Shown: piece by piece, positions 8,701 to 25,608 of the stretch
Layout of the letters: each line of letters opens with the position of its first letter
How positions within the stretch are numbered: position 1 is the first letter of the stretch
NCBI GenBank assembly: GCA_043818275.1
Contig: JBDRFY010000069.1
Coordinates: 1 to 54,614, forward strand
Source of the DNA: a bacterium
GTDB taxonomy: Bacteria > Babelota > Babeliae > Babelales > JAUWHS01
Length of the DNA: 54,614 bases
Reading direction: 5' to 3'
Notes under the pieces: generated by a model
Told to the model about the DNA's origin: nothing
Databases searched by the model: none
The model's input: only the letters and a program-made list of their open reading frames with translations
Made by a program: the position numbers and the translations under genes

Positions 8701-8986
8701 GGTCACAAGTCTACCTAAACTTCAAACTCTTTTAAAAACAATGCTAAGCTTGCCAAATTTTGTCTCTGATAAAGACGCAATTAATGCAAAGCTTACAAAG
8801 GTTGCTGAATTAATTCAAAGGAACGCTGGCGTGACAACAGCAACAACAACGACTCAAGCCACAACAACTACGCCTCAAAGAACAACACCTTCAACAAGAA
8901 TAACAACTGTTCCTCAAACAACAATAAGAGGAAGAGCTATAATACCAACAAGACCATCAGTAGCAACATCTATGCCTGCGGCATAA
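5705..8986 (+). CDS. Large exported modular protein: MIR/beta-trefoil-like domains, FAMeT-like (Methyltransf_FA-like) domain, helical repeats, Thr/Arg-rich tail
   Basis: AAGGAG RBS; signal peptide; YGSILRFKN and GDIVAIKCL trefoil-like starts; YEVVIGG...SLIR...YWV...EWTDP...VKYIGLS pattern at ~7040-7450; helical C-terminal half. Confidence 0.7.
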   Translation: MEIRKNILYVLTTFLILSNFLSVQSLDIGEYEEGALKKASIKRKAVTPTPDILSYGSILRFKNENTATFIGLEGSSVGGKEDSTLDTYWYIYPENIEDKDLKNKYAIKNGATVRIVNVVTNKELEGHTWILEAIGSIEYYLKKDNRLVFKNPDDGTYLTGSLDISGNTSLYKLTTQTKLSGYSYWSIADFYPSYLESDFKSGDIVAIKCLFNDKFLTFFQDRIEVISVRNFPNPPDKIFFQNLASPMRDNTDNDESKFQFVREKGSIGFKSLAPTGKDHFIRANNTKDVGHDRAFMQGQKEYFYNRGLVQIWSKTLGEWERFKPEHFHIKGLGSNGYLAYLYTISKYLESLGNRGRSVTRNDSPIHNGIETDAVILSTYDNVYFSEGKPNKKTPKGLFAIIKISGDPIMPIIPEEEIIEGPIEEPEIKLEKALMGKYENWKEITQQGLADVIFEAKALDNIMIGLAPEAKDYKKDEKIYEVVIGGGVGNEANTYSLIRNTHMGKASDPKIGTYKMGKDIPNKDWNSYWVRIIDQKISFGSGRTPGENMILEWTDPTEPGILVKYIGLSNYKDPVYFKNIEYLTPEVEEEVKAEFFTDKLKNARSIKIFKDMIDKYISLIPEAGESESKTKVFFDEIIWLSQNTPKGKEVELQRLVESVRWNPKLVRPTTENIINYLTIEAGTPMSFDKKIATFEGLINQAYTDEQVKAFLTDNREDIVSLLKILAEEGIESSPANMKRVQGVIETLVYDPIFADYVTLLESIASELTKPITVETLLERIASESATADEPTEIRFIKTTTNLLQKEFGPLIEEVKTGAISEESKQKIINLEKLLNSIIYGIEFEGLHKNIAKEWLARLPKTTAGLIIVETPGESATNEEKVNYLIAATTNETLKSAEKKKIFFEIISQLVKDKNLPADLIEKVRTVLGIIKWHPDVNDQEDALVKYYETQISIPVTIDDQINDLLNRILTITDEAGKKTFLTKVDKVIEATEKDINESKKVTSLPKLQTLLKTMLSLPNFVSDKDAINAKLTKVAELIQRNAGVTTATTTTQATTTTPQRTTPSTRITTVPQTTIRGRAIIPTRPSVATSMPAA

Positions 8987-9019
8987 TTTAAAATAAATTT
9001 AATTATATGGAGAATAGTT

Positions 9020-10465: not shown

Positions 10466-10474
10466 GGAACACAA

Positions 10475-11257
10475 ATGAATCTCAAACATCGGTTTTATTT
10501 TTTCAGCTTAATTATTCTTATATCTTTTTTTGAAATTCAAACAAGTGAGATAAATCTAAATCCGGAAGGAGGCGCCTTAACAGGCGCCTCTTTTCAAAAA
10601 GATGAAACAACAGACCAAACAAGTTTAGAAAAATCAGAAGAAATTTTGGTAAAAAAAGATTCATCAATTGAACAAAGCAAAACAATTGAAGAAATTAAAA
10701 CTGAAAAAATTAATTTGGAAAAAAACATTGAAACTTTAAATCAAAAATTAAAAAACCGTATATTCGATAAAGAATTTATTGAAATTGTAAAAACAACAAT
10801 TGAACAAAAAGTAAAATTAAATTCCGAACAGGAAAAAAAATTAATCACAATCATAATGGAAGCAAGATCAAGAAGTATTGGGGACACAAAAAAAGAATTA
10901 CAAAAAATACTTGAAGATTTATATAGACCGCCCCAAAAAAAAACATCTATTAAAAAGGAAGAACAGGAAAAAGAAAAAACAACAATTGAACAATTAAAAG
11001 AAAAAATAGAAAAAAATCCAAACATCTCTGCTGATGAAAAAACTGAAATTATTAATCTTATAAAAAAACTTGAATCAGAAATAAAAAAGAGCAACGTAAC
11101 ACAACGCATGCAAATACCTGAACAAAGAATTCAGACAACAAGAAGAAGTGAAGGTAAAAGAGTTGATCCATTTACCGTAGAAGATACTTCAAAAAGAAAA
11201 ACTCAAATACTAAAAACTTCAACTAAAGGAAGAAAAGAAACTGTTATAAAAAGATAA
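10475..11257 (+). CDS. Exported Lys/Glu-rich coiled-coil hypothetical protein
   Basis: AAGGA RBS overlapping the upstream stop; hydrophobic N-terminus; heptad-rich body. Confidence 0.65.
   Translation: MNLKHRFYFFSLIILISFFEIQTSEINLNPEGGALTGASFQKDETTDQTSLEKSEEILVKKDSSIEQSKTIEEIKTEKINLEKNIETLNQKLKNRIFDKEFIEIVKTTIEQKVKLNSEQEKKLITIIMEARSRSIGDTKKELQKILEDLYRPPQKKTSIKKEEQEKEKTTIEQLKEKIEKNPNISADEKTEIINLIKKLESEIKKSNVTQRMQIPEQRIQTTRRSEGKRVDPFTVEDTSKRKTQILKTSTKGRKETVIKR
10564..10595 (+). terminator. Intragenic GC-rich hairpin resembling an intrinsic terminator
   Basis: GAGGCGCCT-TAAC-AGGCGCCTC followed by TTTT, inside the 10475 ORF. Confidence 0.4.
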
Positions 11258-11286
11258 TTATAAAAACACTTTAAGAGGAGAAATTA

Positions 11287-13668
11287 ATGAAAATATTAAA
11301 TTTTTTATCCAAAGGATTATTTATCTGCCTGGCAACGTTTCTATCCAATTCTCCGACAAATGCTTTAACGTATCAGGATGTTCAAAATGCTTTAAATGGT
11401 TCTCAAACAGCTGTAAATAACATTATTAATTTTCAAAATCCTGTAACACAGGCAATGGGTATATCAATACCGAAACCTAATTTTATTGCAGAATTTACAA
11501 ACACAAAAAGAAGGCTTGAAGACACAATAAATTTAATTCTTGCATATAATCAAACAACTCTTAATTCTTCAGCTGTATCAAATTTAATAACTGAAGCTCA
11601 AACTTCTGCAAATAATGCTAACCCTAGTAATTCAGCAAATAATTATGGTCGCGATTTTCTTGTAAACGCGCAAGCTAAATTAACATCAGCTTTTAATTTA
11701 TTAAACACACAACAGTCACAACCACAACCACAAGTTCAACTAGTAACGACAATTCCTGATGGCAGTTATATTAAATTAAAAAATATTAAAACAGGCAGAT
11801 ACTTAACAACTAATCCTTATTCCGGAAATAATCCGGCAATTGGACTAACCCTTGAAAACACAACCAACCCAGAAACTCAAACATACTTAGTTAAAGGCTC
11901 AAATGGAAACTATCAATTAGTTGGAACAGCTGGAAGCCAAAGAGGGGCTTTATTTGTTAGTCCACAAAGCGCTTACTTTGACCACACGGAAAATTGGGAT
12001 AATAGTACTACAATGCAAATATACAAACAAGTAAATAGCAATATATATTACTTAACAAATCCATCTCTTAACGGAAAATACATAGGTATAAGTGATAAAA
12101 TAAGTTTCCCAAGAGATTTAAATTTATTTGATGAAAATGCAAAATGGGAAATAATTCAAGTCACTGTGCAACCACAGCCTCAACCAACAATGCCATTTAA
12201 TGATGGTGATCTTGTAACAATTAAAAGTTATGATAATCAATACTTGCAAATGCCTACTCAATTACCATCAGTAGGCTATTATCAAGCTCAATTTACAAAT
12301 AAAACAAATCAACCTAATCAAGTATTTAAAATAAAAAAATATACAAATAATTACTATGCTTTAATTGGCACTAAAACTGGAGAATATACTGGAGCTAATT
12401 CAGGATTCCTCGGTGCATACAGCCCTTATTCAAGTAGATTCGAAATTAAAGATACGCCTGGCGAAAACAATTATTTCTTATTATATAACAAAGGTGATTA
12501 TAGCTTCGCTATTAAAAACACCAAATATAATAAGTTTGAAGAAAAATCTGGACCTTTTTTAAAGGATACTGATGCAACATTTAATAATCTTCCAGCTTCA
12601 GCTATTTTTACAATCGAAAAATATACAGCTCCAACCATACAACCACAGCCACAACCAGAACCGCTACCAAATCCAACAATGCCATTTAATGATGGTGATC
12701 TGATTACAATAAAAAATTTAAATGGAATTTATTATCAAATGAGCGATAATAATCAAGGTCAATTTTATTACAATACATTCAAATCCCCCAACCAAGTTTT
12801 ACGAATAAAAGTAAATCCTAATAACAGTTATTCATTCATAGGAACAGTAAATGAAAAATCTGGAATGTTAAAAAGTGACCCAAGCTATGCTAGATTTACT
12901 CTCAACCAACAGATAGCTAATCCAGAAAACTCTTTTACTCTTTTTAGTAAAGGAGACAATTCTTTTGCTATCTATAATATCGGCTCTAATAAATTTGAAA
13001 ATCAAGATAGTTGGGCTTTAAAGGATACCGCTCAACCATTTAATACCCTTCCTGCTTCAGCAATTTTTACAATTGAAAAATATACGCCACAACCAGAACC
13101 ACAGCCACAACCAGAACCACAGCCACAACCAGAACCACAACCAGAACCACAGCCACAACCAGAACCACAGCCACAACCAGAACCACAGCCACAACCAGAA
13201 CCACAGCCACAACCAGAACCACAGCCACAGCCAGACGAGAAAGCAAAACAAATAGCCGATCTTCAAAATCTATTAATTCAAAAACAAACAGAACTAAGTC
13301 AAACTTCTCCAGTAAACAGAATAAAAAGGTCTCAACTTAACAGCGAAATCACAAACATTCAAAATCAGATAAACTCTCTTCAGGGAACAACAACTACTCC
13401 TTCAACAACAACTCCAACACAAGTTGTAACTCAACCAACAACTGTTGTAACTCCAAGAGGAGGTGTAACTCCCCGGGTTTATCAACGGCCTGGCGGAACC
13501 AAAGTAAGTCCATCCTCAGCTTTTGGCAGAACAGCTGCAACAGGAAGAAGTACTGCTCAACCGACATATCCAACAACAAGAACAGGTCAAGCAGTACTCC
13601 AAACAAGTACAACAGCGACAGGAAGAGGCGGTTACCAGGCAACAACTCAAACTTCACAACGATGGTAA
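11287..13668 (+). CDS. Exported protein: helical N-domain, three beta-trefoil-like domains, PQPE linker, Thr/Arg/Gly tail
   Basis: GAGGAG RBS; signal peptide; DGSYIKLKNIKTGRYLT and twice MPFNDGDL.TIK...LPASAIFTIEKYT. Confidence 0.7.
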   Translation: MKILNFLSKGLFICLATFLSNSPTNALTYQDVQNALNGSQTAVNNIINFQNPVTQAMGISIPKPNFIAEFTNTKRRLEDTINLILAYNQTTLNSSAVSNLITEAQTSANNANPSNSANNYGRDFLVNAQAKLTSAFNLLNTQQSQPQPQVQLVTTIPDGSYIKLKNIKTGRYLTTNPYSGNNPAIGLTLENTTNPETQTYLVKGSNGNYQLVGTAGSQRGALFVSPQSAYFDHTENWDNSTTMQIYKQVNSNIYYLTNPSLNGKYIGISDKISFPRDLNLFDENAKWEIIQVTVQPQPQPTMPFNDGDLVTIKSYDNQYLQMPTQLPSVGYYQAQFTNKTNQPNQVFKIKKYTNNYYALIGTKTGEYTGANSGFLGAYSPYSSRFEIKDTPGENNYFLLYNKGDYSFAIKNTKYNKFEEKSGPFLKDTDATFNNLPASAIFTIEKYTAPTIQPQPQPEPLPNPTMPFNDGDLITIKNLNGIYYQMSDNNQGQFYYNTFKSPNQVLRIKVNPNNSYSFIGTVNEKSGMLKSDPSYARFTLNQQIANPENSFTLFSKGDNSFAIYNIGSNKFENQDSWALKDTAQPFNTLPASAIFTIEKYTPQPEPQPQPEPQPQPEPQPEPQPQPEPQPQPEPQPQPEPQPQPEPQPQPDEKAKQIADLQNLLIQKQTELSQTSPVNRIKRSQLNSEITNIQNQINSLQGTTTTPSTTTPTQVVTQPTTVVTPRGGVTPRVYQRPGGTKVSPSSAFGRTAATGRSTAQPTYPTTRTGQAVLQTSTTATGRGGYQATTQTSQRW
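13087..13233 (+). repeat. Coding minisatellite, 18-bp unit CCACAACCAGAACCACAG (PQPEPQ)
   Basis: Seven identical full units, one 12-bp unit (13123-13134) and a partial final unit. Confidence 0.97.
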
Positions 13669-13700
13669 GAAACTAAATTATTTTATAAAAAACAATCAAA

Positions 13701-13731
13701 AAAACGGCGGTTTTTTTTAATCCGCCGTTTT
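13701..13731 (+). terminator. Intrinsic terminator-like hairpin after 11287..13668
   Basis: AAAACGGCGG ... CCGCCGTTTT inverted repeat. Confidence 0.7.
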
Positions 13732-13767
13732 AATATTATGAGAATTTGCACAAAATCTGATTTTTTC

Positions 13768-13797
13768 TTGAATTTACCTTGATAAAACTGGCATAAT
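13768..13797 (+). promoter_or_regulatory. Possible sigma70 promoter for the 13873 gene
   Basis: TTGAAT-18 nt-CATAAT with an extended -10 TG. Confidence 0.35.
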
Positions 13798-13872
13798 AAA
13801 AATGTACGATTAAAAGGATTTTTTGAAAAATTTTAAATTTTTAAATCAACTTTCATAAAAAAGGAGAATTTC

Positions 13873-14664
13873 ATGAAGGTTTTATGTAATTTTTTAATTT
13901 TAACATCATTATTTTTTAATTTAACTTTTGCGCAAAATTCCAATCAGGCATCTGAAGAAATTTTAAACCCTGGATTTATCAAAATTAAGGCAGCTAACAA
14001 TAAATATGTATCAATTAAAAATAGCCCAAATAATTATAGTTTTGACTTATCTTTAGAAGATTTTTCAACCAACAGCGAACCAAGACAAACTTTTTTCATT
14101 GTTCAAAAAGAAGGAAACCCAATAATTTTTGGGTCTTTAAATCCAAAAGATTACACCTTTCATTCAGAATTAGATCTTTTGGGTAACAGCAAAAATTTAG
14201 GTCAAGGATTTCTAAGCCCTTACAGAAATGGCAGTTTTCAAACAAAGTATTACAACGATTTTTCAGCAAACGTAATTAAAACATTTAAAATTACTGGATC
14301 AACCAATAAATATTTAATAACAAACGTCAATGAATTTAATTCAAAAAAAGAAAATAGTTTTTTTGGTATTGACGCAAATGGAAACTTTACAATTGGATTG
14401 AATAAAAATGATCCTAATGCCCAATTTGAAATAGAACAAGCAACCATACCGGTTAATTTAGAAAAACAAGTTCAGCCAACAAAAAAAGTTGTTCAGCTGG
14501 AATCAAAAAAATTAACCCCGGCAGAACAAAAAAGACCAAAATTAGCTCAATCCACATTAAGAACTCCGCTCGAAAAAAAAGATGAAGGTTATACAGGAAG
14601 AGTTTATAGAAGACCTTCCGGACCATCTGTCACGGGAGGAGGAAGAATCGTTACAAATTTTTAA
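13873..14664 (+). CDS. Exported single beta-trefoil-like domain protein with Arg/Gly tail
   Basis: AAGGAG RBS; signal peptide ending TFA; GFIKIKAANNKYVS...NAQFEIEQ resembles trefoil units of its neighbours. Confidence 0.65.
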   Translation: MKVLCNFLILTSLFFNLTFAQNSNQASEEILNPGFIKIKAANNKYVSIKNSPNNYSFDLSLEDFSTNSEPRQTFFIVQKEGNPIIFGSLNPKDYTFHSELDLLGNSKNLGQGFLSPYRNGSFQTKYYNDFSANVIKTFKITGSTNKYLITNVNEFNSKKENSFFGIDANGNFTIGLNKNDPNAQFEIEQATIPVNLEKQVQPTKKVVQLESKKLTPAEQKRPKLAQSTLRTPLEKKDEGYTGRVYRRPSGPSVTGGGRIVTNF

Positions 14665-14702
14665 GTAAAAAATAATATTTTTAGTTTTTTACTTAAAAAT
14701 TT
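14655..14702. terminator. AT-rich 18-bp perfect inverted repeat at the gene end
   Basis: AAATTTTTAAGTAAAAAA (14655-14672) / TTTTTTACTTAAAAATTT (14685-14702). Confidence 0.45.
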
Positions 14703-14709
14703 AAACACA

Positions 14710-14740
14710 TTGACAAAATTTAAAATAAAATTGTTATAAT
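14710..14740 (+). promoter_or_regulatory. Sigma70-type promoter for the 14795 gene
   Basis: Consensus TTGACA (14710-14715) and extended -10 TGtTATAAT (14732-14740); 19-nt spacer. Confidence 0.6.
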
Positions 14741-14794
14741 CTTAAAGCTTAAAAGAGAATGTTTTTTAATCATATTTTTTAAAGGAGATTTTTC

Positions 14795-17700
14795 ATGAAA
14801 TCATGGAATTTTTTATCGAAAATTTTATTCATATGTTTTGCAACATTATTATTCAATACAACCAAAGCTGTAACTTATGATGAAGTCAAAAAAACATTAG
14901 ATTATGCCGAAAGCAAAGTTAATGAAATACTACGGCACACAAAACCAACAACTGAAGTAAAATTCACACCAATTAAAGAACTCAATATGGATTTTGTAAA
15001 TTTGTATAATATCACTAAACAAGCTCTGAATAATACCGGAAATCTTATAAATAGTTATAATATAGAAACCAATAATAACGCAAATGTAACATTTAAAGTA
15101 AACGAAGCAAAAAATTTGTTAAATTCCGCAGGAGCAAAAAAGGACGGTGGGGATCACAACCACGGAAGAGACTGGCTAGTTAACGCTTTAAACAAACTTA
15201 AAGAGGCGTTTAATTTATTACAAGAACAAACAATTAGTGGTGAAGGCGAAGTTGGCCCATTAAAAAATTATTCCCTGGTAACAATAAAAGTTAATAATAA
15301 ATATCTCAGTGCTGATATAATCAGTGACACACCACAAATAAAACTTGTAGATAAACTTCAAGCACCTTATCAAGGTAACAATAATCAAATTTTTATTATT
15401 CGTAAAAGCGGCGAATATGTAGCATTTCAATCTATGAAAGATTTTATCAATGATGGAAACTTCTTAGAATTTAATATTAATAATGAAGCAAAACTTCTTA
15501 ATCAAGGTTTTGATTCCGGAAAATTTTTCAGACTAAATGCAGTTTCTGGAAAAACAAATACATATTATATTTTTTCTTATCCTAGACAAACATATGTCAT
15601 GCAAACTGGAGAAACAATTAAAACAGGTTATGCCCAAAGTGATATTGGAAATAAAGTTTCTGCCCAATTTGAAATAAAAGAATTCACACTTGATGATCCT
15701 GCGGCCAAAACAATTTTAAACCCAACTTTCTATAGACCAGACTTAGTAACAATAAGAAACGTTGGTCAAAATAAATATTTAAGCGGATCTTATAATGAAG
15801 CTGGATATGGCGGAAATATCAATCAATCAAGAGCTTTACAACTTGTGGATAAACCAATCCCTCTCACTTCCGTTTTCAAAATCGCAAAATCAGACCAAGA
15901 TTTAACAAAACAAGATCCTAATTACAGAGACTGGTTTGACAAACCTGGATATGAAACATGGTTTTCATTCATAGCTACTTATAGATTGGGATTTAGTGGT
16001 GGACAAAGAGGCTTGATGGATATAGCAGATGAAGGATATTTTAATTTAACTGTCGCAACAAATGCATACAGGAACTTTGAATTATCAAGGGTTCCAAATA
16101 CAGAAAAAGAATATTATATAATTAAAAACCAATTCCATAATAAATATTTAAGAGTTTCCGGAGGCAAACTTTTGGCAGATCAGAATGATGCAGGATCCGC
16201 CATGGCAGATCAACATTGCTGGTTTGAGATTGCAGAATTCAAAATGGAACCAAATCTTTATATTTTAAACAAAGAAACAGAAAATTTTAAATTTCCATCA
16301 GCAGGAAATGGTTTTATTACATTTCAGGTAAAAACACCAAATCGTTTAGAATTAACATTTTTAGATAATAACAATAATACGATTGGCAAAATTGTTTTTT
16401 CAAAAAATGAAATCAGCGGAGAATTCCAAACAACTTCATTTAGAGTAAGACAAGACAATATTTTCGATTCAGATTCAACCAAATTTTCTCCTTTCTGGAT
16501 TACTATTAGTAATCAAACTTTAATAACAGGAAAAGGAGATACAGCTGGGCAAAACACATTAAATTTAGAAACAGAAGGAAATGTAAAACAAGCAAGTTTA
16601 AAAATTCCCGCTTTGACAAATATTGTTGCTGTTAAATTCGCAGGAGATCCAAACACTTTCTTATTTAAACCAAGTGTCACACAACCAACAGTTACTATTG
16701 ATATACCACCTAAACCAGGAGAAGGTGAAACTATAGTTAAACTTGAATCGGGATATTATAAAATTAAAAATGTTGAAACAAATACATACATGACAATTAA
16801 AGATTCAAATCTGGATGCTGACATTTATAACACCAACGGAAAACCATGGGTCATATATTCCTTAAGATTCGAAAATCCAATTAATAATGCAACACAAATC
16901 TTTAAAATAGAAGAAACAGATGGCTGGCATAAAATTATCGGTTCACTGGATGCAACATATCAATTACCAAACAGCGGCATTATTGATACAGGTCTTGGAA
17001 CTGCATATTTTAATAAACAATTTGATTTTAGCACTTATAGAAAAATTAAAATCACTCAAAAAGCAGGAGTTCTTGGATCTTTTATAACTTCCGAAAAAGA
17101 TGCAAATAGCAAGTATGGTGTTGAAGCAAATAAATTAATGAAAGATAAAGCAAATCCTCGTTTCATTTTTGAAAAAGTAATGGTGCCTGACGCAACAACA
17201 ATAGAACCAATTGCGGAATTAAAGGTAGAAAAATATGATTTGGATATTAATGAGGTTCCAGGCGGATTAACTCAGGTAAGCGTTGGCGGCAATTTAATTT
17301 GCGGTATAAATAGCTCAAATAGACTTTATAAATGGGATAACGCAAAAAATACATGGACTTTATTTTCTGATGCAAATTATAAACACGTTTCTGTTGGTGA
17401 TGATAATATTGTTCTTACATTAGGAACAGATAATAAAATTTACACAAGAAAAGATGACAAATGGTTACTATTCGGTAAAGGTATTTTACCAACCACACCA
17501 ACAATAACAACTCAAACCGAAACAGCAAATTCAACTCCATCAGGAGAGCTTCCAGTCCCAGGTTCATTACCTGCTCCAACAACATTGCCAACCCCTCCAT
17601 CAACACCAACCCTTCCAGTGATAGGTCCTGATGGAATAGCGTATTTTGCTACAGCCCAGGCAATTCAAATGAAACAAATCGAAATTGGATCTAAAGATTA

Positions 17701-18646
17701 TATTTGGGGCCTAGGGCAAGATAACAAAGCTTATATGTGGAATGGTTCTGAATGGATTGATAAATCAATAGGAATGAAATTTAATTATATTTCTGTTGGA
17801 ATAGATGGAACAGTTATGGCCCTTGATTCAACAAATAAGCTTGCAAGTTGGACAGGTTCAAACTGGACAATTTCACCATTCAAAGTTCATCAGGTAAGTG
17901 TTACAAATAAAGACAAACATTGGGCGATAACAAAAGAAGAAGATGGCAGTTTCAATGTTTATAAATTTGTTGATAACGGATATGTTTTAAGAGCCAAAAA
18001 TTTACAACAAGTATCAGCGAATCTTGAAGGAACTTTATTTGGAATAAGTACTTTAAAAATATCTGGTGGATTTAAAATTTACGCAAGAATCATAAAACTT
18101 TACGGCAAAATTCTTGATAAATTAAACAACGCAAAAGAAAAAACAACAGTAAAAGAAAAAATCGAAGAAATAAATAAAGCGATTGACCTGGCAGTTGCCG
18201 AAAAAGTTGCTGCGGAATTAACATCTGATGAATTAAGCGCTCTTAAATTAGAAACATACACGGAACTATACAATATTTTATCAAAACAATTAGAAGCAGC
18301 AAAAACAGAAAATGTACTTAAGGAACTTAAAAATCTTGTAACTAAGGCGGGAGCTTCTGTTTTAATCGCGGATAATATTAAACCATTGTTAATTAGTTAT
18401 GCTGAAACAAAAATTATACTTGAAGAACCTAAACCAGAAACACCCGCAACCGCAACAACAGCAACCGCGGCAGATAGAAGAAGAATAACAACAACCACTT
18501 ACACCCCACGGGGAAGAGCCGTAGGTCCTTCACAACAAACAACAACAAGAGGAGGAACTGTTATTCCCGTACAACAAACAGCAGTTCCAGCAGCAACAAC
18601 AGGCGGCTCAACAACTCAAGACATAATTGCTAAAAAAACTCTATAA
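14795..18646 (+). CDS. Large exported modular protein: helical N-domain, beta-trefoils, FAMeT-like domain, tectonin-like propeller, helical domain, Thr/Arg tail
   Basis: AAGGAG RBS; signal peptide; tectonin-like blades PGGLTQVSVG, YKHVSVGDD, MKQIEIGSKDYIWGL, YISVGIDGTVMAL; GNGFITFQVK...FWITI. Confidence 0.72.
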   Translation: MKSWNFLSKILFICFATLLFNTTKAVTYDEVKKTLDYAESKVNEILRHTKPTTEVKFTPIKELNMDFVNLYNITKQALNNTGNLINSYNIETNNNANVTFKVNEAKNLLNSAGAKKDGGDHNHGRDWLVNALNKLKEAFNLLQEQTISGEGEVGPLKNYSLVTIKVNNKYLSADIISDTPQIKLVDKLQAPYQGNNNQIFIIRKSGEYVAFQSMKDFINDGNFLEFNINNEAKLLNQGFDSGKFFRLNAVSGKTNTYYIFSYPRQTYVMQTGETIKTGYAQSDIGNKVSAQFEIKEFTLDDPAAKTILNPTFYRPDLVTIRNVGQNKYLSGSYNEAGYGGNINQSRALQLVDKPIPLTSVFKIAKSDQDLTKQDPNYRDWFDKPGYETWFSFIATYRLGFSGGQRGLMDIADEGYFNLTVATNAYRNFELSRVPNTEKEYYIIKNQFHNKYLRVSGGKLLADQNDAGSAMADQHCWFEIAEFKMEPNLYILNKETENFKFPSAGNGFITFQVKTPNRLELTFLDNNNNTIGKIVFSKNEISGEFQTTSFRVRQDNIFDSDSTKFSPFWITISNQTLITGKGDTAGQNTLNLETEGNVKQASLKIPALTNIVAVKFAGDPNTFLFKPSVTQPTVTIDIPPKPGEGETIVKLESGYYKIKNVETNTYMTIKDSNLDADIYNTNGKPWVIYSLRFENPINNATQIFKIEETDGWHKIIGSLDATYQLPNSGIIDTGLGTAYFNKQFDFSTYRKIKITQKAGVLGSFITSEKDANSKYGVEANKLMKDKANPRFIFEKVMVPDATTIEPIAELKVEKYDLDINEVPGGLTQVSVGGNLICGINSSNRLYKWDNAKNTWTLFSDANYKHVSVGDDNIVLTLGTDNKIYTRKDDKWLLFGKGILPTTPTITTQTETANSTPSGELPVPGSLPAPTTLPTPPSTPTLPVIGPDGIAYFATAQAIQMKQIEIGSKDYIWGLGQDNKAYMWNGSEWIDKSIGMKFNYISVGIDGTVMALDSTNKLASWTGSNWTISPFKVHQVSVTNKDKHWAITKEEDGSFNVYKFVDNGYVLRAKNLQQVSANLEGTLFGISTLKISGGFKIYARIIKLYGKILDKLNNAKEKTTVKEKIEEINKAIDLAVAEKVAAELTSDELSALKLETYTELYNILSKQLEAAKTENVLKELKNLVTKAGASVLIADNIKPLLISYAETKIILEEPKPETPATATTATAADRRRITTTTYTPRGRAVGPSQQTTTRGGTVIPVQQTAVPAATTGGSTTQDIIAKKTL

Positions 18647-18657
18647 TTAATTAAAAG

Positions 18658-18704
18658 CAAAAAAAAGAAAGACCAAAGAATTTCTTTGGTCTTTCTTTTT
18701 TTTG
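18658..18704. terminator. Bidirectional terminator-like 23-bp perfect inverted repeat
   Basis: CAAAAAAAAGAAAGACCAAAGAA-T-TTCTTTGGTCTTTCTTTTTTTTG just after the stop. Confidence 0.85.
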
Positions 18705-18773
18705 AAATCATTGCATTAAAAACTCTTTTTTTTTAAAAATAATTTAATCAGGAAATAAAAAACTAATCTTTGA

Positions 18774-19108
18774 CTTTGTTTATCAATTTAATAATTATTT
18801 TGACAAGCCCTGTTAAGGGCGGCATTTGTTAGCCCAGGGTAAGAAAATTCTTGTCCGCCGAAGTACCGCTATTTGCGGTACGAAGGTGGATAATTTTCGC
18901 AACCCTGGGAAAAAGATTAAAATAAAAATTTAGCCCCGTAGGGGCGGCACATAAAATTATTTGTTTGTTTTTTATGTGCCGCCCCTACGGGGCTAGAATG
19001 TGATTATAATTTATACCCAGAGCTGTAACGCTACGCGTTTTGCACTGGGCTAATAAATGTCGCCCTTAACAGGGCTTGTCAAAGTAATTATTAAGTTGAC
19101 ATACAAAG
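18774..19108. mobile_element. REPIN/MITE-like non-coding nested palindromic element
   Basis: 64-bp terminal inverted repeats (18774-18837 / 19045-19108, 58/64 Watson-Crick); perfect 26-bp inner IR (18931-18956 / 18970-18995); mini-hairpins GCCCTGTTAAGGGC and GCCCCGTAGGGGC. Confidence 0.75.
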
Positions 19109-19177
19109 ACTAACGTTGAAAATTTAAAATTTAAGATCAAAACTTAACGCTTCGGACAGTTATGAAACAAGTTCCAA

Positions 19178-19207
19178 CCTTAGTACCGCAAATAACAGCA
19201 CTTCGGC
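19178..19207 (-). repeat. Inverted degenerate copy of the hairpin module at 18857-18886
   Basis: Reverse complement GCCGAAGTGCTGTTATTTGCGGTACTAAGG vs GCCGAAGTACCGCTATTTGCGGTACGAAGG (26/30). Confidence 0.8.
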
Positions 19208-19253
19208 CAACAGGCAAAATGACAATATGGTAAAAAATATAAAAGGAGAGAGA

Positions 19254-21803
19254 ATGAAAAAAAATCTTATAGTTTTATTAACACTTTTTACAATCAACAT
19301 TTGTAACGCCATAGACATCAACATACCAATCATAGATAAAAAAATAACACCATTTGAAGGTTTTGAACCTGGTGAAGTTTTAAAATTTGCTGGTAGACTT
19401 ACAGATAAAACAATTAATGCGATTAAAGAAAAAGTAACAGAAGCTACCAACAAACTTCAATTTTGGAAAGAAGAAGTCAAAAAGCAAGAAAAAAGTGTTC
19501 CTATAAATGTCCCTTATAATTATGAAGAACTTTTATCGGTAGATAATCAGGATTTCTTTACACAAATTTTTGGAACAGCAAAACAAATATCTGTCGGAAA
19601 AAATAAAGATAAAATGTCTGTCTGGATTATCGGAACAGAAGGTATTCCTTACGAATATAATCCTTCCAATAAAATACATAATCTTTCATGGATAAAGCAA
19701 ATAAAAAACTCGGGTATAACAAAAATTGCTGTTGCTGAAGACGGAACTCTTGCCGGAATAGATTCAAATGGGAATATAGCAATATATAAAAATAATAAAT
19801 GGGAACCAACAAAAACAACAAAAAATGGCATAGCAACCAAAATGACTGCGGAGGCAGCTGAAAATTTCAAAGCTGTTGATGTTGATATTGCAAATGAAAA
19901 AGAAATTGTTTATTTAAACGAAAATGGAGACATTTACAAATCTGATGATGGGGGAATGAATTGGAAATCATTGCCATCACTAAAAAATGAAGAAAAATTC
20001 CAGAATGTTTCCATGGGAGCTGATGGAACAATTTTTGCCTGCGCGGATAATTTAGCCGCTTATCATTTTGATGAACAAAAATGGATAGCATTTCCTAATA
20101 AAATTAAAAAAATTGCAGCCGGAAGCAAAACCAACCTGGTTGGAATTTCAAAAGACAACCAGTTATTAATCTTTGACGCAAGCGAAAATAAATGGATGCT
20201 GCAAAAAAATTTAATCTCTGATGCCGCAAAAAAAGGCAAAACAATCGAAGTTATAGATATCGCAACGAACAGTTCCGGAAACATCTGGGCAATAACAAAT
20301 AAAAATGAAATCATAACTAACATCGCAGCAAATACAAATGACGCTTTACAAAAATTAAAATCAGGAAAAGTCATAACAATAAATAGTTTAAGCGAAAATA
20401 AATTTTTAAGAGTTGAAAACAAAGAAAGAAATTATTTAAAACCTACAGCAACAGACCCGGAAGATCCAAACACTTTATTTACAATAATTCGTTCCGGACA
20501 ATATTTTGGACTTCAATATAAAAATCAGTTTGTTACATGTGATCCAAACGAAGGCCTTGGAGAATTTAAAGGCTCAATTAAATTATCGCCTAATTTTTCA
20601 TCCGGAGAAAAATGGCTGCTTTCTGGTGAATTAGAACAATCAACAATTACAAGTTATGCAAACAAAAAAAATCTAACATTTATTGATTTGGAAACAATTT
20701 TAAAAGAAATTAAAAAAATTCAAATGGAAGCTATAGAAAAACAACATACAGAAGCTCAAATAGCTGCTGCTGCCGGAACTTCCGGTCTTGGAACAGCCGC
20801 GGCAGGTGTTACAACTGCAGCAGGAGCTGGAATTGGCGCTGTTGTTGCTGGCGTAATTATGGCAGTTATGGGAACAGTTGTTCCTGGCGCCGGGAACATT
20901 AGTGGAGCCCTGATTGGACTCGCTATTGGAGGTGCAATAGGAGGAACTTTTGGAGGTATGCTTGGCTTCTCAATGGCCACTTCTGGATTTGCTGCAAATG
21001 CTGTTATTGCAACAGCCATTGAATTTCAGCATCAAAGATCTGCTGCAGATGTGGAAGATTTGGCAAGTCCTGTTTTAAACAATCCGGGATTATTGGGCAA
21101 AATTGTTATGGCATACTTTTTAGCAACTGAAAAAAGCGATCAGGAATTTTTACCGACCTTATTCGATATAGAAATTCAAACAAAAAAACAAAAAGAGATG
21201 CTGGCAACAGACGAAAAAGATTTTAAGCAAGATTATCAATTTGAAGTTCCCGGAAACGGATTTATCAAATTTAAATTAACCGGCAGCCCTTTAAATTTCT
21301 GGCTATGGGATGAAGACAAAAAGGAAATAATTTTGCCTGGAATAATTGGCGGACAAAATAATACAACAATTTCAATTGGAACCCCAACCGGCTGGCAACC
21401 AATTGTAAAAAAATATGAAATAATAAAACCAAATACTCCAAATTCATTCTGGATTGAAATTAAGGACAATAAATTAATAATTGGGTCAGGAGATTTAATC
21501 GGTTCGAATAAAATTGGCGAAAGTGAAACAATAGAAGATCTCTCAAAAGTTAAATATGTCACATTTAGTAAACTTCCAACCTCTGATGTGGAAATTTCAG
21601 AAGTTAATTTTTACAGTAAATTATTAAGCGAAGAAAAACCAATTGAAAAAATTGAAATCACAGAAAAAGAAAGAGCTGAACAACCTAAATTTATTTCTCC
21701 AGCGCCAAAACTTATTTCTCCTGCTCCAACAAAAAAAGAAGAAACAAAACCTGAAAAAATTATTGTAACAGAAGAAGAGGAAGAAGCTTACGGCGGGATT
21801 TAA
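19254..21803 (+). CDS. Exported tectonin-like/beta-trefoil/FAMeT-like protein with glycine-zipper hydrophobic insert (paralog A)
   Basis: ATG 19254 after AAGGAG matches the paralog start; blades KQISVG, TKIAVAEDG, QNVSMGADG, KKIAAGS; Gly/Ala segment ~20755-21020; ends EEAYGGI. Confidence 0.75.
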   Translation: MKKNLIVLLTLFTINICNAIDINIPIIDKKITPFEGFEPGEVLKFAGRLTDKTINAIKEKVTEATNKLQFWKEEVKKQEKSVPINVPYNYEELLSVDNQDFFTQIFGTAKQISVGKNKDKMSVWIIGTEGIPYEYNPSNKIHNLSWIKQIKNSGITKIAVAEDGTLAGIDSNGNIAIYKNNKWEPTKTTKNGIATKMTAEAAENFKAVDVDIANEKEIVYLNENGDIYKSDDGGMNWKSLPSLKNEEKFQNVSMGADGTIFACADNLAAYHFDEQKWIAFPNKIKKIAAGSKTNLVGISKDNQLLIFDASENKWMLQKNLISDAAKKGKTIEVIDIATNSSGNIWAITNKNEIITNIAANTNDALQKLKSGKVITINSLSENKFLRVENKERNYLKPTATDPEDPNTLFTIIRSGQYFGLQYKNQFVTCDPNEGLGEFKGSIKLSPNFSSGEKWLLSGELEQSTITSYANKKNLTFIDLETILKEIKKIQMEAIEKQHTEAQIAAAAGTSGLGTAAAGVTTAAGAGIGAVVAGVIMAVMGTVVPGAGNISGALIGLAIGGAIGGTFGGMLGFSMATSGFAANAVIATAIEFQHQRSAADVEDLASPVLNNPGLLGKIVMAYFLATEKSDQEFLPTLFDIEIQTKKQKEMLATDEKDFKQDYQFEVPGNGFIKFKLTGSPLNFWLWDEDKKEIILPGIIGGQNNTTISIGTPTGWQPIVKKYEIIKPNTPNSFWIEIKDNKLIIGSGDLIGSNKIGESETIEDLSKVKYVTFSKLPTSDVEISEVNFYSKLLSEEKPIEKIEITEKERAEQPKFISPAPKLISPAPTKKEETKPEKIIVTEEEEEAYGGI

Positions 21804-21824
21804 AATAATTAATATTATAACGGT

Positions 21825-21859
21825 ATGGCGTCAGGGAATTACCTTGACGCCATTTTTTT
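21825..21859 (+). terminator. Intrinsic terminator
   Basis: ATGGCGTCAGGG-AATTA-CCTTGACGCCAT followed by a T run. Confidence 0.85.
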
Positions 21860-21933
21860 AAACCATTGATTTGCAATATAATTTTTTTTAAAACTAAAAA
21901 ACACTTAATCAAAAAAAATAAAAAGGAGAAAGA

Positions 21934-24306
21934 ATGAAAAAAAATCTTATAATTTTGCTAACACTTTTTACAATCAACATTTCTAACGCAATAGATATCA
22001 AAATACCAATCATAGACAAACCGGTAACAATTGCTGAAGACTTTCAACCCGGAGAAGCTTTAAAATTTTCAGGAAGACTTACAGACAAAACAATTAACGC
22101 AATAAAAGAACAAGTAACAGAAGCTACCGACAAACTTCAATTCTGGAAAGAAGAAATCAAAAAACAGGAAAAAAGTGTTCCTATAAATGTCCCTTATAAT
22201 TATGAAGAACTTTTATCGGTAGATAATCAGGATTTTTTCACACAAATTTTTGGAACTGCAAAACAAATATCTGTTGGAAAGAATAAAGATAAAATGTCTG
22301 TATGGATTATTGGAACAGAAGGTATTCCTTACGAATACAATCCTTCAAATAAAACGCATAACCTTTCATGGATAAAACAAATTAAAAATTCGGGAATAAC
22401 AAAAATTGCCGCAGCTGAAGATGGAACGCTTGCTGGAATTGATTTAAATGGAAATATTGTAATATCAAAAAATGACAAATGGATTCCAACCAAAACAACC
22501 AAAAATGGAATAGCCATGAAAGTGACAGCTCAAGAAGGTGAAAATTTTAAAGCTGTTGATGTTGATATTGCAAATGAAAAAGAAATTGTTTATTTAAATC
22601 AAAATGGAGATATTTATAAATCTGATGATAGCGGAAACAATTGGAAGATATTACCGTCTGAACCTTCTATAAAAAAAGATGAAAAATTTCAAAATGTTTC
22701 AATAGGAGCAGATGGAACAATTGTCGCGTGCACAGATAAACTTTCAGCTTATTATCTTTATGGCCAAAGATGGATGAATTTTCAAGTTAAAATAAAAAAA
22801 ATTGCCGCTGGAAGCAAAACAAATCTGGTTGGAATTTCTAAAGATAATCAGTTATTAATTTTTGACGCAAATAAAAATAACTGGATGCTGCAAAAAAACT
22901 TAATCGCTGATACCGCAAAAAAAGGAAAACCAATTGAAGTCATCGATGTCGCAACAAACAGTTCCGGAAACATCTGGGCAATAACAAATGATAATAAAAT
23001 AATATCCAACATCGCGGCGAATACAAATGAAGCTTTGCAAAAATTAAAATCGGGAAAAATTGTAACAATAAATAGTTTATGTGAAAACAAATTTTTAAGA
23101 GTTGAAAACAAAGAAGGAAATTATTTAAAACCTACAGCAACCGATCCGGAAGATCCGAACGCATTATTTACAATAATTCGCTCAGGACAATATTTTGGTC
23201 TTCAACAAAGCAACCAATTTATTTCATGTGATCCAAATGAAGGAGTTGGAGAATTTAAAGGCTCGATTAAATTATCGCCAAATTTTTTGGCAAATGAAAA
23301 ATGGCTGATTTCAGAAAAATTAGAACAATCAACAATTACAAGTTACGTAAATAAAAAAAATCTGGCTACCGTTCAATTAGAAAAAATAGTTCTTATATTA
23401 AAAGAAGAACAAATGAAACAGATACAAAAACATCACGATTCCTGGCATGGAATGGCACAAATAATAAGATATGTTCTTCCACTTGACCTACCAACAGCTA
23501 TTGCGGCAGCATTTGCTGTAGCTACAGTAGTTGAATTTCAAAGACAAAGAACTGTGGCAGAACTTGAAGATTATACAAATCCTGTATTACAAAATCCTGG
23601 TCTCTTGGGACCAATGATTGCAATGGCTTATTTACCCCCAATATTTAAAGGAGATGAAGAAGATCTAACCGCTCTATTTGATATAGAAATTCAGACAAAA
23701 AAACAAAAAGAAATATTAGCTACAGATGAAAAAGATTTTAGAAATGATTATCAATTTGATATTCCCGGGCAAGGATTTATCAAATTTAAAGTAACAGGCA
23801 ACCCTTTAAATTTCTGGCTATGGGATGAAGACAAAAAGGAAATAATTTTGCCTGGAATAATTGGCGGACAAAATAATACAACAATTTCAATTGGAACTCC
23901 TACCGGTTGGCAACCAATTTTTAAACAAGATGAAATAGTAAAACCAAATACTCCAAATTCATTCTGGATCGAAATTAAGGACAATAAATTAATAATTGGG
24001 TCCGGAGATTTGATAGGATTAAATAAAATTGGCGAAAGTGAAAAAATAGAAGATCTTTCAAAAGTTAAATATGTCACATTCAGTAAATTGCCTACTTCAG
24101 ATGTTGAAATTTCAGAAGTAAATTTCTATAGCAAATTATTAACTCCCCGATTAACCGAACCCATAGCAACAATTCAACCTGTGCCAACAAAAAGAATAAC
24201 ACCTGCGCCAACCAAAGTTATTTCACCAACACCACAAAAAGAACAACCTAAAATCCAACCAAAAAAAATAACAGAAGAAGAGAAAGAAGCTTACGGCGGA
24301 ATTTAA
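21934..24306 (+). CDS. Tandem paralog B of 19254..21803 with an alternative central segment
   Basis: Long identical stretches (e.g. KKQEKSVPINVPYNYEELLSVDNQDFFTQIFGTAKQISVG); different shorter centre; ends EAYGGI. Confidence 0.75.
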   Translation: MKKNLIILLTLFTINISNAIDIKIPIIDKPVTIAEDFQPGEALKFSGRLTDKTINAIKEQVTEATDKLQFWKEEIKKQEKSVPINVPYNYEELLSVDNQDFFTQIFGTAKQISVGKNKDKMSVWIIGTEGIPYEYNPSNKTHNLSWIKQIKNSGITKIAAAEDGTLAGIDLNGNIVISKNDKWIPTKTTKNGIAMKVTAQEGENFKAVDVDIANEKEIVYLNQNGDIYKSDDSGNNWKILPSEPSIKKDEKFQNVSIGADGTIVACTDKLSAYYLYGQRWMNFQVKIKKIAAGSKTNLVGISKDNQLLIFDANKNNWMLQKNLIADTAKKGKPIEVIDVATNSSGNIWAITNDNKIISNIAANTNEALQKLKSGKIVTINSLCENKFLRVENKEGNYLKPTATDPEDPNALFTIIRSGQYFGLQQSNQFISCDPNEGVGEFKGSIKLSPNFLANEKWLISEKLEQSTITSYVNKKNLATVQLEKIVLILKEEQMKQIQKHHDSWHGMAQIIRYVLPLDLPTAIAAAFAVATVVEFQRQRTVAELEDYTNPVLQNPGLLGPMIAMAYLPPIFKGDEEDLTALFDIEIQTKKQKEILATDEKDFRNDYQFDIPGQGFIKFKVTGNPLNFWLWDEDKKEIILPGIIGGQNNTTISIGTPTGWQPIFKQDEIVKPNTPNSFWIEIKDNKLIIGSGDLIGLNKIGESEKIEDLSKVKYVTFSKLPTSDVEISEVNFYSKLLTPRLTEPIATIQPVPTKRITPAPTKVISPTPQKEQPKIQPKKITEEEKEAYGGI

Positions 24307-24318
24307 AAAGGAGGAAAA

Positions 24319-25608
24319 ATGAAATCAAATAAAATTTTATTATTCTTTTTATTTATCTTTTCTCAAATACTGACCGCTCAATTCAATCAAATTCCCGGAA
24401 CATTGCAAAAAATCACTGTTGGAAAAGAAAATAATCAGCTTGCGGTTTATGGAATTCATCCAAACAATACAATTTTTAAATACACACCAGGCATTACCCC
24501 TCCATGGACGGGATTTCAAAATCCTTTTTCATTAAATCAGATCGATTTGGGAAACGATGGTTTTTTGATGGGCGCAAATTTAGCGGAATCCAAAAACATT
24601 TATAAATTTGACGCGACAACAAATCAATGGATTCAGACAAATTTAACCGCGTTTCAAATTGTTGTTAACAATAACAACCTAATAATCGCTCTTGCCAAAA
24701 ATTATCTGGTTTTTGAATCAAATGATGGCGGAAACAGCGCTTATCCAATTTCTTCAGACACATTTAAAACTGTAACGGCAAGTAAAAAACCACAGGAAAG
24801 ATTAATTTTGGCAATTAATAAAAATGACAATAAAATTTACAAACATCAGGGCGGAAAAATTTGGACTATTTTTTCAAATTCAACAAATATTACAAAAATA
24901 GCAATTGGCAACGCGCAAAATATTTGGGGAATCGATTCGCAAAACAAACTGGTTAAATGGAACAATTCTACCTGGATTAGACAAGAAGAACCGCCGTTAA
25001 ATTTCATCCCGCCAATTATAGATATTTCTGTTAATTCTGATGGCGTTTTATTTTTAACAACCGACAGCGGAGAAATTTTCGCAAATATTGAAACTCAACC
25101 AATTTCACCTCAAACCAATCCTCAACAACCAATACAACAACCAACGCAACAACAAATACCTCAACAAACACAAACAACAATTCAACAGCTATCTTTAAAT
25201 CAATTTAATATTTTTAAACAACAGATTGAAACGAATCTTAAAAATCTGGAAAATCAAATTAAAGAAAATGGTGAAAAAGATCAATTAAGAGAAAAGCAAA
25301 TTGGTTATTTAAATCAACAACTCAAAGAACTGCAAAGTAAAATCGTAACATTACAAGAAGAAATCAAACAAGCCACAACTCAATCAACAATTATTCAACC
25401 ACAGATTTCACAACAAAATTTAACTGCTTCTCCACCAATTCAGGCAATTCCGGTTCAAACAACAATTCAGCAACCAGCAACAGTCCCAACTCAAATACAA
25501 TCTCAATTAACAATACAACAACCAACACAACAAACTTTTTCAACACAAAGATCAAGAACTACATCAACAGCGCCAACAAACAGCGCGGTAAGTTTTAGAA
25601 GAAGATAA
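24319..25608 (+). CDS. Exported tectonin-like propeller plus coiled coil with Gln/Thr/Arg tail
   Basis: AGGAGG RBS; signal peptide; IPGTLQKITVG, TKIAIGNAQNIWGID, DISVNSDG blades; ends SFRRR. Confidence 0.7.
   Translation: MKSNKILLFFLFIFSQILTAQFNQIPGTLQKITVGKENNQLAVYGIHPNNTIFKYTPGITPPWTGFQNPFSLNQIDLGNDGFLMGANLAESKNIYKFDATTNQWIQTNLTAFQIVVNNNNLIIALAKNYLVFESNDGGNSAYPISSDTFKTVTASKKPQERLILAINKNDNKIYKHQGGKIWTIFSNSTNITKIAIGNAQNIWGIDSQNKLVKWNNSTWIRQEEPPLNFIPPIIDISVNSDGVLFLTTDSGEIFANIETQPISPQTNPQQPIQQPTQQQIPQQTQTTIQQLSLNQFNIFKQQIETNLKNLENQIKENGEKDQLREKQIGYLNQQLKELQSKIVTLQEEIKQATTQSTIIQPQISQQNLTASPPIQAIPVQTTIQQPATVPTQIQSQLTIQQPTQQTFSTQRSRTTSTAPTNSAVSFRRR

Follow-up and report, generated by a model that had tools for sequence, protein, structure and literature searches.

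What does a hydrophobic centre do when it differs between two otherwise closely similar exported proteins of a host-dependent bacterium? The question is raised by a pair of tandem genes, here termed copy A and copy B, on contig JBDRFY010000069.1 (assembly GCA_043818275.1) of a bacterium of the class Babeliae; the window analyzed here is this whole contig of 54,614 nucleotides. Very little is known of how such host-dependent bacteria live, and it is probably through their exported proteins that they make contact with a host. From the letters of the window, the original prediction proposed that the two genes carry a polymorphic membrane-active module between glycan-binding domains, a candidate pore former that might serve vacuole escape or host lysis. 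In the most likely reading of our analysis, the bacterium has a small genome, depends on a host, and exports A and B through Sec as modular proteins of lectin type. For their centre we tentatively favor the role of a membrane-anchoring hairpin; carried on the end of a helical stalk, it would tether a two-headed lectin-type protein and would not be lytic.

Copies A and B share their flanks and differ in their centre

A pairwise BLASTP comparison of the two proteins gave an N-terminal block (A10–507 against B1–501, 408 of 501 residues identical, 81%) and a C-terminal block (A599–858 against B534–790, 193 of 265 identical, 73%), with no A/B alignment between them. These residue numbers, like those of the centre below, refer to the 858-residue open reading frame (ORF) of copy A, and AlphaFold2 (AF2) residues refer to an 849-residue model. 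Overall identity amounts to 78%, and in the centre it falls to 30, 6, 3, and 30% per 30 columns. The original prediction had rightly described tandem paralogs with a replaced centre, and had placed the two central segments closely (one of about 85 residues at ~20755–21020 in A, the other at ~23430–23535 in B; compare Table 1). It had the copies rejoin at an EFQ motif, where the flanks do realign, but similarity already restarts about 8–10 residues ahead of it (A[VI]AT..EF), at approximately position 20989 in A and 23501 in B. The copy-specific DNA spans about 20748–20988 in A (241 nt) and 23437–23500 in B (64 nt), and the centre of A is longer by 59 codons, in frame.

The A segment is rich in small residues (24 Ala and 21 Gly among the 91 residues from 508 to 598) and hydrophobic, with 31% Ile/Val/Leu/Met/Phe and a Kyte-Doolittle mean of 2.26 over 19 residues. 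It is GC-rich, as had been predicted (51% against 30.8% for the genome), but this is a matter of amino acid composition only. The GC content at third codon positions (GC3) is 0.24 in the cassette, 0.21 in the remaining gene and 0.20 over 18 window genes, so that the high GC content is accounted for by Gly and Ala codons, and the codon usage of the cassette is native.

Two origins of the replaced centre were considered and rejected. A recent foreign acquisition is at odds with GC3 values equal to those of gene and window and with the lack of another copy in the genome, where a search found neither a second cassette nor a donor. Derivation of the B centre from that of A by deletion or frameshift fails because an 8-nt match between them is within chance and the other frames of B run into stops; as DNA the two centres are unrelated, their best local score of 16 being equalled in 244 of 1000 shuffles. 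For both flanks, the ratio of nonsynonymous to synonymous substitution rates (dN/dS) between A and B is 0.18 at a dS of about 0.6, indicating that purifying selection keeps both copies and that the duplication is not very recent.

Over the cassette and its 3' junction (20802–21127 in sum), no differences were found in short Logan contigs from three runs, one in each of three studies, and this part is therefore not specific to the assembly; one of the runs matching the cassette is possibly the source sample. None of the Logan contigs listed crosses the 5' junction of the cassette. Over the larger region 19000–24500, metagenome runs from groundwater and biofilm, belonging to three studies, contain near-identical fragments at low depth together with many fragments less than 90% alike, from relatives or repeats. 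None of the sequencing runs listed for the locus contains RNA.

The flanks are of a glycan-binding type

Both copies have the same order of parts: a signal peptide, a tectonin propeller, a middle domain, a helical stalk, the hydrophobic tip, a PF12248 sandwich, a spacer rich in Pro and Lys, and an acidic tail with Y-x-G-I at its end. The putative signal peptides have no conserved lipobox, and B has Ser at the place of a Cys in A.

At the level of family and predicted fold the flanks are of a glycan-binding type. Tectonin domains were identified in both copies (Table 1; PF19193 cut-off 30 bits), and in the AF2 model of A residues 98–358 consist of β-strands throughout (predicted local distance difference test, pLDDT, 70–93), as expected for a β-propeller. 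The C-terminal domain of A scores 21.1 bits against PF12248 in hmmscan and 24.9 bits in the genome search (gathering score 24.2 bits), with scores of 41.2 and 23.4 bits for the homologs P0004 and P0003. It is modeled as a sandwich with confidence in the full-length prediction (residues 660–785), and reaches a pLDDT of 80.5 when folded alone. A Foldseek search of the PDB with this domain placed galectins on top (E from 3.6e-6, TM-score 0.53–0.69, identity 7–15%), a likeness at the level of the fold only, and we do not claim galectin membership. On the strength of the tectonin match (57.1 bits in A) and the galectin-like fold, the proposed position of the centre between putative glycan-binding domains holds for family and fold.

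Propeller and C-terminal sandwich are the only confident parts of the full-length AF2 model, the centre and the middle domain having a pLDDT below 50. Pfam gave no match in the middle domain or in the pieces before and after the cassette, and no dedicated pore-forming domain was present among the Pfam matches of these pieces or of A and B.

A glycine-zipper pattern in the copy A cassette

The hairpin core of copy A (Table 1) is the sole transmembrane-grade window in the family. With A480–858 as query, HMMER was run exhaustively against 1.84 billion representatives, among which the cassette part drew eight weak matches (E 2e-5 to 1e-3) in small, otherwise unrelated proteins. Five of the eight align gap-free over the hairpin, with a GxxxG ladder, the motif (V/I)PG(A/P/L)G(T/N), and a further GxxxG ladder; across A and these five relatives 14 columns (13 Gly and one Pro) are invariant, and the ladders are presumably helical. 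Four of the five match the Pfam model Gly-zipper_Omp below its cut-off of 25 bits (the best three with 16.7–20.6 bits, P0010 with 7.1), and P0006 has no match to it. Some match further glycine-zipper models of Pfam, all under the cut-off, and P0010 has a lipoprotein-like signal at its N-terminus. By pattern and kinship we therefore class the cassette of copy A as a glycine-zipper hairpin, in agreement with the GxxxG-ladder hairpin of the original prediction. Membership of a curated family is not demonstrable, as the sole Pfam matches of the centre are to C19orf12-like (16.4 bits, cut-off 30) and TMEM51.

In the ESM Atlas, residues 500–625 gave feature scores of 0.80–0.83 (lead level 0.9) and a structural TM-score of at most 0.52, with some glycine-zipper clusters among these sub-lead rows. 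A complex prediction for four copies of A488–622, run without controls, scored 0.00. Hydrophobicity was estimated as a crude sum of Hessa-scale values over 19-mers. On this scale the best 19-mer of copy A (+0.66) is close to transmembrane helix 1 of FtsH (+0.51) and helix 3 of TolQ (+1.19), both encoded in the window, and only A resembles known inner-membrane helices, the values for B, P0003, and P0004 being +4 to +6.

The only relative of the A cassette within the class (E 7.4e-5, 32% identity, query residues 7–121) is a stand-alone, hydrophobic Gly-rich protein of 129 residues with a signal peptide, encoded in a genome of the same order (L009 109–498; G001:C11).

The centre varies in sequence and mostly keeps its character

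The HMMER search returned three relatives at E ≤ 1e-10, and word-index searches over 5.8 billion clusters contributed P0003, P0014, and P0015, giving a family total of seven members in approximately 15 billion proteins. Among 261 small genomes of the class, our class-wide comparison set, the family is present in two, the genome of the window and G119 of the same genus. Five further genomes gave weak matches, four to the PF12248 domain and one (G001) to part of the cassette. A scan of genome contigs yielded nothing but the contig of G119, and a scan of metagenome contigs with the family alignment gave 304 pattern matches and no relatives.

In all three close pairs of this homolog survey the centre is the least conserved and fastest-changing stretch, which bears out the predicted central hypervariability; the segment is not invariant. 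Per 30 columns, its identity is 50–60% between P0004 and P0014 (76% overall) and 13–20% between P0005 and P0015 (54% overall), in addition to the A/B pair described above. Six of the seven members nevertheless keep an uncharged, Gly/Ala/Thr-rich run at this position (89, 15, 28, 30, 29, and 35 residues), in most cases with a Pro or Gly close to its middle. In the seventh, P0005, a Lys/Glu-rich spacer of helix type takes its place. As six of seven keep an uncharged run of small residues despite the variability, the character of the segment, and not its sequence, is under constraint.

Exported relatives and the topology of the centre

In G119, the ortholog is followed by a gene for a protein of 572 residues, which has a signal peptide, a matching C-terminal domain and the end EEYGGI, and in which no internal hydrophobic segment was found. 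Similarly, the window gene at 5705–8986 combines a signal peptide with PF12248 and has no internal hydrophobic segment. As this type of domain is exported in relatives without a membrane segment, the C-terminal domain of A and B probably resides outside the cytoplasm. Compatible with this are full export and a hairpin that either crosses the membrane an even number of times or enters a single leaflet; a single-pass stop-transfer arrangement is not. The gain of two helices in A keeps either parity and is undecisive on topology.

With respect to export routes, three secretins and two Omp85 proteins are encoded in the genome (94% complete), in which neither FHIPEP nor VirB4 was found. This agrees with the Sec and type II secretion described in the consulted portions of papers on Dependentiae (PMC6561590; PMC4776705).

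Uncharged Gly-rich segments also occur in other exported proteins of the genome. A 957-residue protein with three PF12248 domains (161.5 bits; G000 C64:41353–44226, L020) contains a 26-residue segment, GGLIGGVASVGMGLAAIGGSVAAAGM, between the second and third of these domains. The surrounding region of about 294 residues is conserved in 42 of the 261 genomes (relatives L023–L032), with the Gly-rich segment kept in position and variable in sequence; genes of this C64 type are often arranged in tandem and encode proteins of 900–2000 residues. A comparison of the A/B family with the C64-type central region by hhalign aligned only 17 columns, at the start of PF12248 (probability 3.9%), and the hydrophobic centres of the two are therefore not homologous. 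Four paralogs of 404–634 residues (G000 C41:16634–18433, C57:4351–6255, C73:28384–30255, and C32:2–1213) start with a hydrophobic N-terminal signal and continue with a charged helical part, a Gly-rich uncharged segment of 26–37 residues (e.g., AAAVGGGTGMVGLGGLGTASVGLAGLGTAGAAIL), and an acidic region; three of the four were scanned with Pfam, with no match.

A possible membrane-anchoring hairpin and its alternatives

In the reading that we tentatively favor, the central segment would form a helix-turn-helix hairpin, either spanning a membrane or only dipping into it, so that the two lectin-like halves lie together on its extracytoplasmic side. The hairpin of B and most relatives would be short, its 15–35 uncharged residues reaching one leaflet or the interface only. 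Through the in-frame gain of about 59 codons, A would have acquired a complete two-helix hairpin of the glycine-zipper type (GxxxG ladder, VPGAGN, GxxxG ladder), whose length and hydrophobicity would suffice for two crossings of the bilayer. The A helices would be retained in the inner membrane of the bacterium itself as Sec exports the protein, and the weaker segments of B and the relatives could pass and act later, on the outer membrane, vesicles or a host membrane. The analysis shows the architecture, the variable centre, the relationship of the cassette to glycine-zipper proteins and the export of the C-terminal domain type; insertion, hairpin topology, and the choice between the bacterium's own envelope or vesicles and a host membrane are what we infer from these features. 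If the hairpin does anchor the lectin, the proteins would offer a simple model for adhesin display or delivery without injection systems, and A and B a natural pair in which to compare a glycine-zipper hairpin with a short hydrophobic one.

A non-lytic role is supported by the lack of a toxin context. No immunity-like small ORF is present between or beside A and B in the ORF listing, as the original prediction had noted; the dN/dS of 0.18, the native codons of the cassette and the lack of a genomic donor copy point the same way. The original prediction had also set its membrane-active module against a simple inner-membrane anchor. Of this alternative, the single-pass form is argued against by the relatives, and a same-side hairpin in the bacterium's own inner membrane is conceivable for copy A.

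Several observations weigh against an anchor. The centre has a pLDDT below 30 in AF2, and its topology and membrane placement were derived from the sequence. P0005 has no hydrophobic segment at all, so that an anchor is not essential to the family, and the B segment includes an Arg and an Asp, with only 15 residues uncharged. Helices of A retained in the inner membrane would leave the lectin domains in the periplasm, a poor fit with the binding of host glycans. The C64 Gly-rich segment is located inside a conserved region of approximately 290 residues and might be a buried helix of a soluble domain, and such segments therefore need not be in membranes. The centre of copy A had no match to PF05433 or PF13488 of Pfam at E ≤ 10, and sequence searches of the PDB with the cassette and a six-sequence profile gave nothing significant: SlyB (7ojf) appeared at E 1.2 with the single cassette sequence and was gone with the profile.

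In an alternative view, the centre has no dealings with a membrane. It would be a linker that evolves fast, or else a Gly/Ala helix, buried or self-associating, that spaces or oligomerizes the lectin modules of a soluble or surface-fibre protein. The helix-type spacer of P0005, the free variation of the centre in length and sequence, the recurrence of Gly-rich uncharged segments in other exported proteins of the genome and the C64-family segment within its conserved region are all compatible with this view. We nonetheless consider it unlikely, as the A segment, with its 31% Ile/Val/Leu/Met/Phe and Kyte-Doolittle value of 2.26, is far above ordinary flexible linkers, charge is wholly avoided at the centre in six of seven members, and the A cassette aligns with glycine-zipper modules of the membrane type. 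A stop-transfer anchor in the inner membrane, with an odd number of passes (one in B, three in A), a periplasmic N-terminal half, and a cytoplasmic C-terminal half, is a further alternative. Such an anchor classically has a hydrophobic segment downstream of a Sec signal, the two extra helices of A would preserve the odd number, and the best 19-mer of A equals known inner-membrane helices encoded in the window in hydrophobicity. This topology is nevertheless improbable: the C-terminal domain type, with its YGGI tail, is exported without a membrane segment (G119 neighbor, P0005, and 5705–8986), the domain type flanks the hydrophobic segment on both sides in the C64 protein, and in B, P0003, and P0004 the segment scores +4 to +6 by the crude estimate and is broken by Pro. 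The Pro/Lys-rich spacer is a further difficulty, as such spacers are typical of extracytoplasmic proteins.

The original prediction would have the protein act as a lectin-guided permeabilizer. In such a mechanism, the glycine-zipper helices would oligomerize to a channel or pore in a host or competitor membrane after glycan binding. A GxxxG ladder is needed in the toxins Tse4, TelE, CdzC/D, and LXG-T2, according to the part of the source consulted (PMC12955049), and the cassette of copy A is such a ladder; its centre is hypervariable, as is often seen in toxin modules, and the lectin-type flanks are real by Pfam and Foldseek. However, a transmembrane-grade segment is present only in A and one member has none at all, and the module is central and not a C-terminal toxin domain. 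Behind a Sec signal, the cassette would first encounter the inner membrane of the producer itself, from the periplasmic side, and no immunity-like ORF is nearby. AF2 predicted no shielding bundle of amphipathic helices round the hairpin, at low confidence, and similarity to solved toxins was not significant. Glycine zippers equally build harmless outer-membrane hairpins, as in SlyB and YfgH. Beyond the motif nothing speaks for a pore, and pore formation, vacuole escape, host lysis, and a eukaryotic target drew support from none of our tests. We regard this mechanism as quite unlikely; were the hairpin to permeabilize membranes, it would represent a new kind of lectin-aimed α-helical toxin.

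A more speculative and rather doubtful possibility is that the centre is a device for insertion into host membranes, resembling a fusion peptide or a small channel and aimed by the two-headed lectin. It would be part of a class-wide habit, in which Sec export of unrelated families with glycine-rich hairpins replaces injected effectors, and the tail would serve as a hook for Atg8 in the manner of an LC3-interacting region (LIR). The A/B family, the PF12248-repeat family (42 of 261 genomes) and the four-paralog family of the genome would be examples of such a habit, which presupposes that type III and type IV secretion are lacking. We prefer the anchoring hairpin over these alternatives.

Comparison with known systems

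Glycine-zipper hairpins are known; what is new is their architectural setting between a tectonin propeller and a galectin-like domain. A literature search confined to the pairing of Dependentiae with tectonin found no publication joining the two. The outer-membrane lipoproteins SlyB, YfgH, OsmB, and YiaD, which have two transmembrane glycine-zipper helices, are presented as non-toxic anchors or organizers in the portion of the preprint consulted (bioRxiv 10.64898/2025.12.22.696046). Copy A shares with lipoproteins of this type (PF05433/PF13488) a two-helix GxxxG hairpin that would enter the membrane with both ends on one side, and it is to these models that the relatives of its cassette give their best, sub-threshold, Pfam matches. 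Unlike them, A has no lipobox, carries the hairpin in the middle of an 850-residue multi-lectin protein and has a distinctive VPGAG(T/N) turn; it misses the Pfam cut-offs, and its similarity to SlyB is limited to the non-significant match mentioned above.

With the toxins Tse4, TelE, LXG-T2, CdzC, and CdzD the cassette has in common the GxxxG ladder in hydrophobic helices and the variability of the module, as far as these are covered by the consulted part of PMC12955049. Those toxins take the form of small proteins or C-terminal domains, leave the cell by type I, VI, or VII secretion and come with immunity genes, whereas A and B have a Sec signal, a central module, and no immunity candidate that we could see. 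A Pfam scan of A and B gave no LXG, type VI, or type I delivery domain; the genome's type VI, VII, and I systems were not searched. Chlamydial Inc proteins have a bilobed domain of two helices of about 20 residues and a short loop, with both ends on one side of the host-derived membrane, and they need type III secretion. The two-helix hairpin with same-side ends in a protein of an intracellular bacterium resembles this arrangement, but there is no sequence relation, and FHIPEP was not found in the genome.

Through the PF19193 propeller the proteins resemble lectins of the tectonin/tachylectin type and the eukaryotic TECPR proteins, and their acidic Y-x-G-I end is a candidate parallel to the LIR end of TECPR2, in so far as our source describes it. 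In contrast to TECPR proteins, A and B are bacterial and Sec-exported, and combine the propeller with a PF12248 sandwich and a hydrophobic hairpin. Lectin-guided pore formers, such as CEL-III and Vibrio cholerae cytolysin, insert amphipathic β-hairpins from a dedicated pore-forming domain. The combination of lectin domains with a membrane-inserting element would be similar in A and B, in which Pfam detected no dedicated pore-forming domain. In pore formers of the colicin/Bcl-2 type the hairpin is held within 8–10 amphipathic helices, while for A two flanking helices are predicted, with low confidence and no Pfam match.

The acidic tail

The extreme C-terminus is conserved as an acidic run followed by Y-x-G-I-COOH, which is also found at L016 3496–3520 and 5231–5255. 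The tail reads YGGI in A, B, P0004, and the 572-residue G119 neighbor, YEGI in P0003, and YVGI in P0014. Because it is common to two different architectures, it behaves like a sorting or docking signal. Binding of Atg8 proceeds through LIR motifs, which follow an acidic [WFY]xx[LIV] pattern. The Y-x-G-I tail fits this pattern and is a candidate LIR by pattern match. The eukaryotic tectonin-repeat protein TECPR2 has an LIR at its end, after the TECPR repeats, according to the consulted part of PMC13557572. A strict DNA pattern for E-E-x-Y-G-G-I-stop matched only copy A and one site in G168 among the 261 genomes; the latter is probably due to chance, as it lies in no ORF of at least 20 residues. 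The pattern was too strict, and the genes of B and G119 escaped it.

Genomic setting

The window is contig C69 of an assembly of 1.33 Mb. Ordinary bacterial genes are present in it as well, among them those for FtsH, TolQ, a PD40 (WD40-like) β-propeller-repeat protein, Mur ligases, Ffh, and PheS. The features of the gene pair are collected in Table 1.

Table 1. Features of copies A and B and their coordinates in the window.
Feature	Position	Strand	Description	Basis
Copy A gene	19254..21803	+	849 aa from Met10; 858 aa from upstream ATG at 19227	ORF listing, BLASTP
Copy A putative Sec-type signal peptide	19254..19310	+	MKKNLIVLLTLFTINICNA; n/h/c regions	By eye, hydrophobic peak; inferred
Copy A tectonin β-propeller	19545..20327	+	PF19193, 2.3e-15, 57.1 bits	Pfam, AF2
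Copy A middle domain	20328..20687	+	No Pfam match	AF2, pLDDT ~30
Long helix into hydrophobic centre	20688..20795	+	Predicted helix 479–514 of 849-aa model	AF2, low confidence
Copy A central uncharged Gly/Ala-rich segment	20754..21020	+	89 aa, residues 510–598, without D/E/K/R	
Copy A glycine-zipper hairpin core	20826..20969	+	Putative helix AGIGAVVAGVIMAVMGTVV, turn PGAGNIS, putative helix GALIGLAIGGAIGGTFGGMLGF	
Conserved post-cassette segment	20985..21092	+	A[VI]ATA[IV]EFQxQR...NPGLLG; predicted helix, A and B alignable again	
Copy A galectin-like β-sandwich	21231..21608	+	PF12248, Methyltransf_FA-like	Pfam, AF2, Foldseek
Copy A acidic tail	21780..21803	+	EEAYGGI and stop	Sequence
Terminator-like hairpin between A and B	21825..21853	+	12-bp stem, 7 G-C pairs, T run	
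Copy B gene	21934..24306	+	790 aa	ORF listing, BLASTP
Copy B tectonin domain	22555..23103	+	PF19193, 2.3e-12, 47.3 bits	Pfam
Copy B central segment	23437..23532	+	DSWHGMAQIIRYVLPLDLPTAIAAAFAVATVV; residues 502–533, uncharged only over 15 residues LPTAIAAAFAVATVV	
Copy B galectin-like/PF12248-like domain	23746..24123	+	Sub-threshold, 19.1–22.0 bits	Homology with A
Copy B tail	24283..24306	+	KEAYGGI and stop	Sequence

The true start of copy A is probably Met10, at which the N-termini of B and the homolog P0003 match. A and B are separated by 130 bases, and B is followed after 12 bases by the next tectonin gene (24319). Given the strong terminator-like hairpin in between, A and B may be transcribed separately.

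The pair belongs to a run of about nine consecutive genes on the forward strand (5705–25608) encoding signal peptides and tectonin, ricin-type, or PF12248 domains. Most of these end in Thr/Arg-rich tails with G-R motifs (...TIRGRAIIPTRPS, ...DIRGRLRR, ...AVSFRRR), as does the gene upstream of the G119 ortholog, and such tails may represent a second C-terminal signal.

Directly upstream of copy A (18740–19226), the intergenic DNA contains nested inverted repeats, with outer arms of 74 nt at 18769–18842 and 19040–19113 (86% complementary) and inner arms of 41 nt. According to blastn, copies of this DNA of 100–380 bases and 84–95% identity are dispersed over at least 10 other contigs of the genome, and the element looks like a miniature transposon.

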